Source: Escherichia coli (lineage in GTDB: Bacteria; Pseudomonadota; Gammaproteobacteria; Enterobacterales; Enterobacteriaceae). Taken from it: 64,000 nt of DNA. This document shows positions 63,860 to 63,900 of the stretch, in pieces. The notes beneath the pieces are model-generated. The model was given only the letters and a program-made list of their open reading frames with translations. It searched no databases and was not told where the DNA came from. Position 1 is the first letter of the stretch; each line of letters begins with the position of its first letter. Location: the NCBI RefSeq assembly GCF_024502345.1, contig NZ_JALDNN010000001.1; one strand, given 5' to 3'. The translations under genes were made by a program, and so were the position numbers.

Positions 63860-63900
63860 AATAATTGATATAACAATGATTCTTATTATCAATATTATGA
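63860..63900. promoter_or_regulatory. candidate Fur box upstream of hemP
   Basis: aataataattgatataacaatgattcttattatcaatatt contains AATGATTCTTATTATC, close to the Fur consensus GATAATGATAATCATTATC. Confidence 0.45.

Follow-up and report, generated by a model that had tools for sequence, protein, structure and literature searches.

A clustered Fur operator upstream of the orphan hemP (ydiE) gene of Escherichia coli

The 56-bp segment at positions 63847-63902 of the window, i.e., of the whole 64,000-nt stretch of Escherichia coli DNA analysed here, is as a whole best explained as the Fur operator of the orphan gene hemP (ydiE), repressing this gene under iron, a reading to which a probability of about 95% is assigned. 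Its basis in the present analysis is the motif itself, the clustering of the sites, their statistical excess, their conservation in orthologous loci, and the identity of the DNA with that of E. coli K-12; in vivo binding of Fur and derepression in Δfur mutants come from published work on the identical K-12 sequence. The hemP Fur site has already been documented in E. coli K-12, and the assignment is correct and ordinary, offering no new lead.

The distal part of the window carries, on the plus strand, btuD (59905-60654), nlpC (60732-61196), ydiV/rflP (61442-62155), and selO/ydiU (62218-63567). On the minus strand lie hemP, the gene regulated by the Fur box, which runs from the ATG at 63849 to 63658 and encodes 63 amino acids followed by a stop codon, and the 3' end of aroH with its stop codon at 63983-63981. 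By Megablast the selO-hemP-aroH end of the window was matched in 5,422 of 5,426 complete E. coli genomes, where the three genes are annotated under these names; in the annotation of K-12 MG1655 the small gene is ydiE (b1705). The hemP reading frame matches the Pfam model PF10636 (hemP) with 56.8 bits (cut-off 25) and E = 2e-15, the match spanning residues 27-63 and the entire 37-position model. A longer, 72-codon hemP frame starting from a TTG at 63876 was rejected: it begins within the Fur box, E. coli annotations take the ATG at 63849, and the N-terminus upstream of that codon is unconserved. In the first-pass annotation hemP was described as a hemin-uptake-family gene, and the family assignment stands with the Pfam match, whereas the genomic context of a hemin-uptake operon is not there. 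The gene stands alone, with aroH on one side and the convergent selO on the other, as it does in all six orthologous loci described below, and the annotation of the 48 kb of E. coli sequence corresponding to this part of the window includes no haem-uptake genes. Since hemP has no haem-uptake neighbours, it owes the name 'hemin uptake protein' to homology and not to a demonstrated function.

The aroH gene ends 90 bp upstream of the hemP Fur region, and between the two lies a stable hairpin (63942-63979, minus strand; -21.6 kcal/mol, z = -3.9), located just past the aroH stop codon and probably serving as the aroH terminator. Its stem is kept in other genera, with compensatory changes present in the alignment; because its U-tract is weak, it was missed by the terminator scan. 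The hairpin probably separates hemP from upstream transcription, which argues for a promoter of its own.

The Fur-box-like sequence AATGATTCTTATTATC, placed by the first-pass annotation in an AT-rich stretch upstream of hemP, is found on the plus strand at 63875-63890, and the surrounding 51 bp (63850-63900) contain 12% G+C. Because hemP is encoded on the minus strand, this position is upstream of the gene, 26-41 bp from its ATG. The resemblance to the Fur consensus claimed for it proved to be the best in the 64 kb: the classical 19-bp Fur box GATAATAAGAATCATTGTT, with the F-F-x-R layout of hexamers (63872-63890, minus strand), agrees with GATAATGATAATCATTATC at 15 of 19 positions and is the sole match of this quality among the ~128,000 positions on both strands of the window. 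Five other matches reach 14/19, two of them belonging to the same hemP box; a 14/19 match at 63878-63896 is offset by 6 bp from the box at 63872-63890.

As a yardstick that does not depend on a preset consensus, a weight matrix was built de novo on 14 further Fur-controlled promoters of K-12 (fhuA, fepA-fes, fepD-entS, fepB-entC, gpmA, sufA, cirA, exbB, ryhB, sodA, fecI, fhuF, bfd, and yoeA), with coordinates taken from Chen et al. 2007 (PMC2189734, Table 4). A palindromic Gibbs sampler with random starts arrived at AATGATAATCATTATCATT (17.3 bits) in 8 of 20 runs and at the same motif in the classical register in 4 runs, and a MAFFT alignment of the 14 promoters brought their Fur boxes into line unaided. 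With this matrix the strongest single-dimer site of the 7-1-7 type, ATTGATAATAAGAATCATT at 63875-63893, scores 16.7 bits and ranks first in the window, so the motif score, on which the first-pass claim had been made to depend, is not low. The centre of this site, 63884, is at -35 from the hemP ATG. A second site, AATAAGAATCATTGTTATA at 63869-63887, is shifted by 6 bp, scores 16.4 bits (third in the window), and has its centre at 63878, 29 bp upstream of the start codon. No other pair in the window has two members of 10 bits or more at a spacing of 6 bp. Weaker flanking sites score 10.5 bits (63857-63875) and 10.0 bits (63854-63872), and the whole cluster (63847-63902) comprises 10 overlapping positions with positive scores, which sum to 74 bits compared with 19 bits for the runner-up cluster of the window. 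In leave-one-out scoring the training sites, chosen among the strongest in the genome, gave 18.4-27.8 bits, a range of which the best hemP site, at 16.7 bits, falls slightly short.

A promoter region of 12% G+C may hold Fur-like words, such as GATAAT and ATCATT, by chance and without any Fur function. The contribution of chance was estimated with dinucleotide-preserving shuffles of either the 130-bp intergenic region or the 51-bp AT-rich core alone. The probability of a best score at least equal to that observed was 0.0019 for the intergenic region and 0.0285 for the core, so that 2.85% of the AT-core shuffles do give an equally good single site; the window also contains three isolated sites of 14-16.6 bits in coding regions elsewhere. 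Two sites of at least 16 bits placed 6 bp apart, the diagnostic spacing, however, appeared in 0.04% of the core shuffles (P = 0.0004) and in 0 of 20,000 shuffles of the intergenic spacer. The hemP match thus far exceeds what is expected from AT-richness alone. Chance is further contradicted by the box being the most conserved block across four genera and by the ChIP-exo and Δfur data on the identical sequence, both presented below; it is effectively refuted, and its remaining probability is negligible. The other strong matrix hits, at 23810, 51185, and 54917, were set aside as isolated sites within astA, thrS, and pheS.

Homologues of HemP turned up in other Escherichia, Salmonella, Citrobacter, and Phytobacter, and six orthologous loci were compared, those of Escherichia sp., S. 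enterica, S. bongori, C. sedlakii, C. farmeri, and Phytobacter. The gene order ppsR-aroH-hemP-selO-ydiV is kept in all six. In the alignment of seven aroH-hemP spacers (the window and the six orthologous loci), all sequences share GATAAT, ATCATTGT, and a few of the adjoining bases without variation. The Fur box TGATAATAAGAATCATTGT is the best-conserved 19-mer of the spacer, with a column identity of 93%, as against 53-77% in that part of the spacer which lies upstream of the AT-rich operator region. As Fur sites, the boxes of the orthologues score 19.0 bits in Escherichia sp., 22.3 bits in each of S. enterica, S. bongori, and C. sedlakii, 20.2 bits in C. farmeri, and 25.7 bits in Phytobacter. 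The boxes of Salmonella ydiE (STM1346), Citrobacter, and Phytobacter occupy the same position between aroH and hemP and share the core GATAAT..ATCATTGT with the box of the window. They differ from it in reading ...AATAATAATCATT or ...AATGATTATCATT and in scoring 20.2-25.7 bits as opposed to 16.7. The E. coli-type box carries AAG at a place where the other boxes have AAT or GAT, and therefore its main site scores lower and the two overlapping sites are roughly equal; the change from AAT to AAG in the E. coli lineage makes the main site weaker by ~6 bits relative to the other genera. Within the species, the 61-bp stretch 63845-63905, which includes most of the cluster, is present at an identity of at least 95% in 5,399 of the 5,426 complete E. 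coli genomes, and 659 genomes match this stretch, as it reads in the window, at 99% or more. The alignment also places the hemP start codon of C. farmeri 9 nt away from its position in the other loci.

Two candidate promoters of hemP, both on the minus strand, were considered. Candidate A (63885-63913), inferred from the alignment, consists of a -35 element TTGCTC (63913-63908), a 17-bp spacer, and the -10 element GATAAT (63890-63885). The CTTG of its -35 region, the GATAAT, and the 17-bp spacing are invariant in all seven aligned spacers, and the sequence between the two elements varies; since its -35 element matches the consensus at 3 of 6 positions only, it was not listed by the consensus scan. 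Candidate B (63865-63892) is predicted from a -35 element TTGATA (63892-63887), a 16-bp spacer, and a -10 element TATCAA (63870-63865), and corresponds to the promoter sequence that Shimada et al. 2014 gave for the aroH-ydiE spacer in their genomic SELEX of RpoD (PMC3946193). Its -10 element is not kept in Salmonella according to the alignment, and it would leave hemP with a leader of only ~9 nt. At its thresholds the consensus scan of 63500-64000 returned no minus-strand promoter and no terminator, and its single promoter-like match, ATAACA-17-TATTAT at 63870-63898, is on the plus strand, where 0.8 such matches are expected. A search of the literature for a mapped ydiE start site yielded the predicted RpoD promoter from SELEX and a listing as part of an excludon. 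It is also worth mentioning that the minus-strand leader of hemP (63850-63885) lacks structure, as its folding energy of -1.7 kcal/mol does not surpass that of shuffles, and that no purine-rich Shine-Dalgarno sequence precedes the hemP ATG within 20 nt (...ATTATTATTAATTTTTATG), nor is one present in the orthologues.

Candidates A and B each overlap the strong pair of Fur sites (63869-63893), which covers the -35 region, the -10 region, or the start site. Fur boxes normally overlap the promoter that they repress, as restated by Chen et al. (PMC2189734), and the best-supported reading of the arrangement at hemP is occlusion of its promoter by Fe2+-Fur. Since the consensus scan gave no minus-strand promoter and the literature search no mapped start site, this mechanism rests on predicted promoters. 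When iron is plentiful, Fe2+-Fur dimers would occupy the two overlapping 19-bp sites with centres at -35 and -29 from the hemP start, and further dimers would probably spread to the weaker flanking sites. The core promoter elements would thereby be covered, RNA polymerase excluded, and hemP kept off; under iron limitation Fur would be released and hemP transcribed.

The conserved block could instead be mainly the core promoter of hemP, or be bound by H-NS or a different nucleoid protein, with iron acting indirectly, e.g., through RyhB or some other regulator. The GATAAT of the box is a plausible -10 element and TTGATA a plausible -35 element, the RpoD SELEX study returned the spacer as a 'constitutive' promoter and also flagged its AT-rich sequence as bound by H-NS (PMC3946193), and control of Salmonella ydiE by Rcs is listed by Troxell et al. 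(PMC3212961). What is conserved, however, is the full palindrome, GATAAT-N-A-N2-ATCATTGT, which extends beyond one hexamer, the orthologues reach 25.7 bits as Fur sites, and Fur was cross-linked in vivo at the site in several strains (PMC10164565). With operator-promoter overlap being normal for Fur, a promoter in the block is moreover compatible with an operator there. A block without a direct role of Fur is accordingly considered very unlikely. Because the spacer is flagged as H-NS-bound, Fur need not be the sole regulator of hemP.

Between position 63899 and the end of the hemP stop codon, the window does not differ from E. coli K-12 MG1655 by a single base, and results obtained with K-12 therefore transfer directly. 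The K-12 ydiE operator has the same neighbours, aroH, selO, and ydiV. The nearest difference is at 63900, where the minus strand has T and K-12 has C; it is located just upstream of CATAAT and of the strong sites, within the spacer of candidate promoter A. This base and the truncated selO described below are among the differences between the window and K-12. For K-12 ydiE, Chen et al. 2007 predicted a Fur cluster, counted among the strong ones, of 20.1 bits with 10 sites over 53 bp and its centre at -35 (PMC2189734), and also cited for this gene the microarray study of McHugh et al. 2003. The scan of the window reproduces that cluster in its centre (63884, i.e., -35), in the number of sites, and in span, so that both clusters consist of 10 sites over about 53-56 bp with the strongest at -35.

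In the ChIP-exo data of Gao et al. 2023, Fur peaks were reported at ydiE at 1787605-1787617 in MG1655 and at 1791295-1791307 in W3110 (PMC10164565). The peak was mapped through W3110, which is free of any version shift, because MG1655 coordinates in older papers refer to an earlier version of the genome. With the W3110 hemP start at 1791327, it corresponds to -32 to -20 and to positions 63869-63881 of the window, inside the two strong Fur sites and contained in that at 63869-63887. In the same work the log2 fold change of ydiE in Δfur relative to the wild type was +2.87 in MG1655 and +8.14 in W3110; the gene was upregulated in Δfur in 8 of 9 strains, with an unexplained value of -1.10 in BL21, and it was counted as a member of the core Fur regulon of the nine strains (PMC10164565). 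In Salmonella, ydiE, for which a box was predicted, was upregulated 7.4-fold in Δfur (PMC3212961) and was induced by iron-restricting egg white (PMC5428311). The gene is absent from the main text of two other papers on the Fur regulon (PMC4676285, PMC10219339), and no footprint or gel shift of the hemP promoter was found in the literature. The control of hemP by iron through Fur, which the first-pass annotation had regarded as consistent with the sequence, is thus supported by a high-scoring clustered motif, by conservation in orthologues, and by K-12 ChIP-exo and Δfur data on identical DNA.

The same expression data bear on the possibility that the site acts on a neighbour of hemP, through read-through from aroH or through an antisense transcript starting from the plus-strand match ATAACA-17-TATTAT. 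This match does overlap the box, and the convergent ydiE and selO of K-12 have been classed as an 'excludon', a pair with overlapping transcripts (PMC12288877), yet one such match is at the level of chance, and aroH is set apart by the 90-bp distance and the stable hairpin. In MG1655 Δfur the change was -0.48 log2 for aroH and +0.32 for selO, compared with +2.87 for ydiE (PMC10164565). The probability that a neighbour is the real target is very small, and hemP is retained as the gene that the operator controls.

Several other features of the window were recorded. It is collinear with E. coli, in the order ynjC ... ast, chb, katE, cedA, tcyP, pfkB, espL1, thrS-infC-pheST, ihfA, btuCED ... aroH, and over the part compared (16001-64000) the best match among the 5,426 complete E. 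coli genomes reaches only 98.9-99.2% identity; the DNA probably stems from a Shigella or from an E. coli lineage outside this collection. At about 48500-50400 the sequence matches espL1, a gene for a type III effector. In K-12, hemP and selO are convergent with ~3 nt between their stop codons; in the window the selO frame ends 91 nt earlier because of an amber codon at 63565-63567, in which base 63566 is A instead of the T of K-12 (TTG for Leu changed to TAG). The truncated selO encodes 449 amino acids rather than 478, the C-terminal 29 residues being lost. Of the 5,407 complete E. coli genomes with a match to the 61 nt around the amber codon, not one is identical over them, the best having one mismatch, and the change looks like a lineage-specific truncation or pseudogene. 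The second-best Fur cluster of the window contains the site AATGATAAAGATTCTCCAA (61454-61472; 13.5 bits, 14/19 to the consensus), located within the first 31 nt of ydiV/rflP. It adjoins a W3110 Fur ChIP-exo peak at 1793696-1793708 (approximately 61468-61480 of the window) that was assigned to ydiU/ydiV; the peak listed for ydiV in MG1655 is ~110 bp from the W3110 one, so that the two disagree in position (PMC10164565).

An analogous Fur box precedes hemP of Yersinia enterocolitica, where, according to Stojiljkovic and Hantke 1992 (cited in PMC3212961), the Fur-regulated gene heads the hemPRSTUV operon. Common to both cases, in this comparison drawn from the literature, is a small gene of the HemP family (PF10636) behind a Fur box. 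As presented there, the Yersinia gene leads an operon for a haem receptor and transport, whereas hemP of the window stands by itself ahead of the convergent selO.

For the genome studied here, the finding means that an intact, canonical Fur operator is retained in front of hemP/ydiE, which is of little significance beyond annotation; it would serve well as an internal positive control in Fur-motif scans of this genome. HemP/HmuP proteins have been reported to act as trans regulators of haem uptake in Burkholderia and rhizobia. It is conceivable, though rather unlikely, that the orphan HemP could regulate haem-uptake genes located elsewhere in a similar way, in trans and on iron starvation, and that the AAG of the E. 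coli-type box could tune the threshold of hemP induction. If this were true, its targets in trans would be, e.g., the chu/shu loci of pathogenic E. coli and Shigella.
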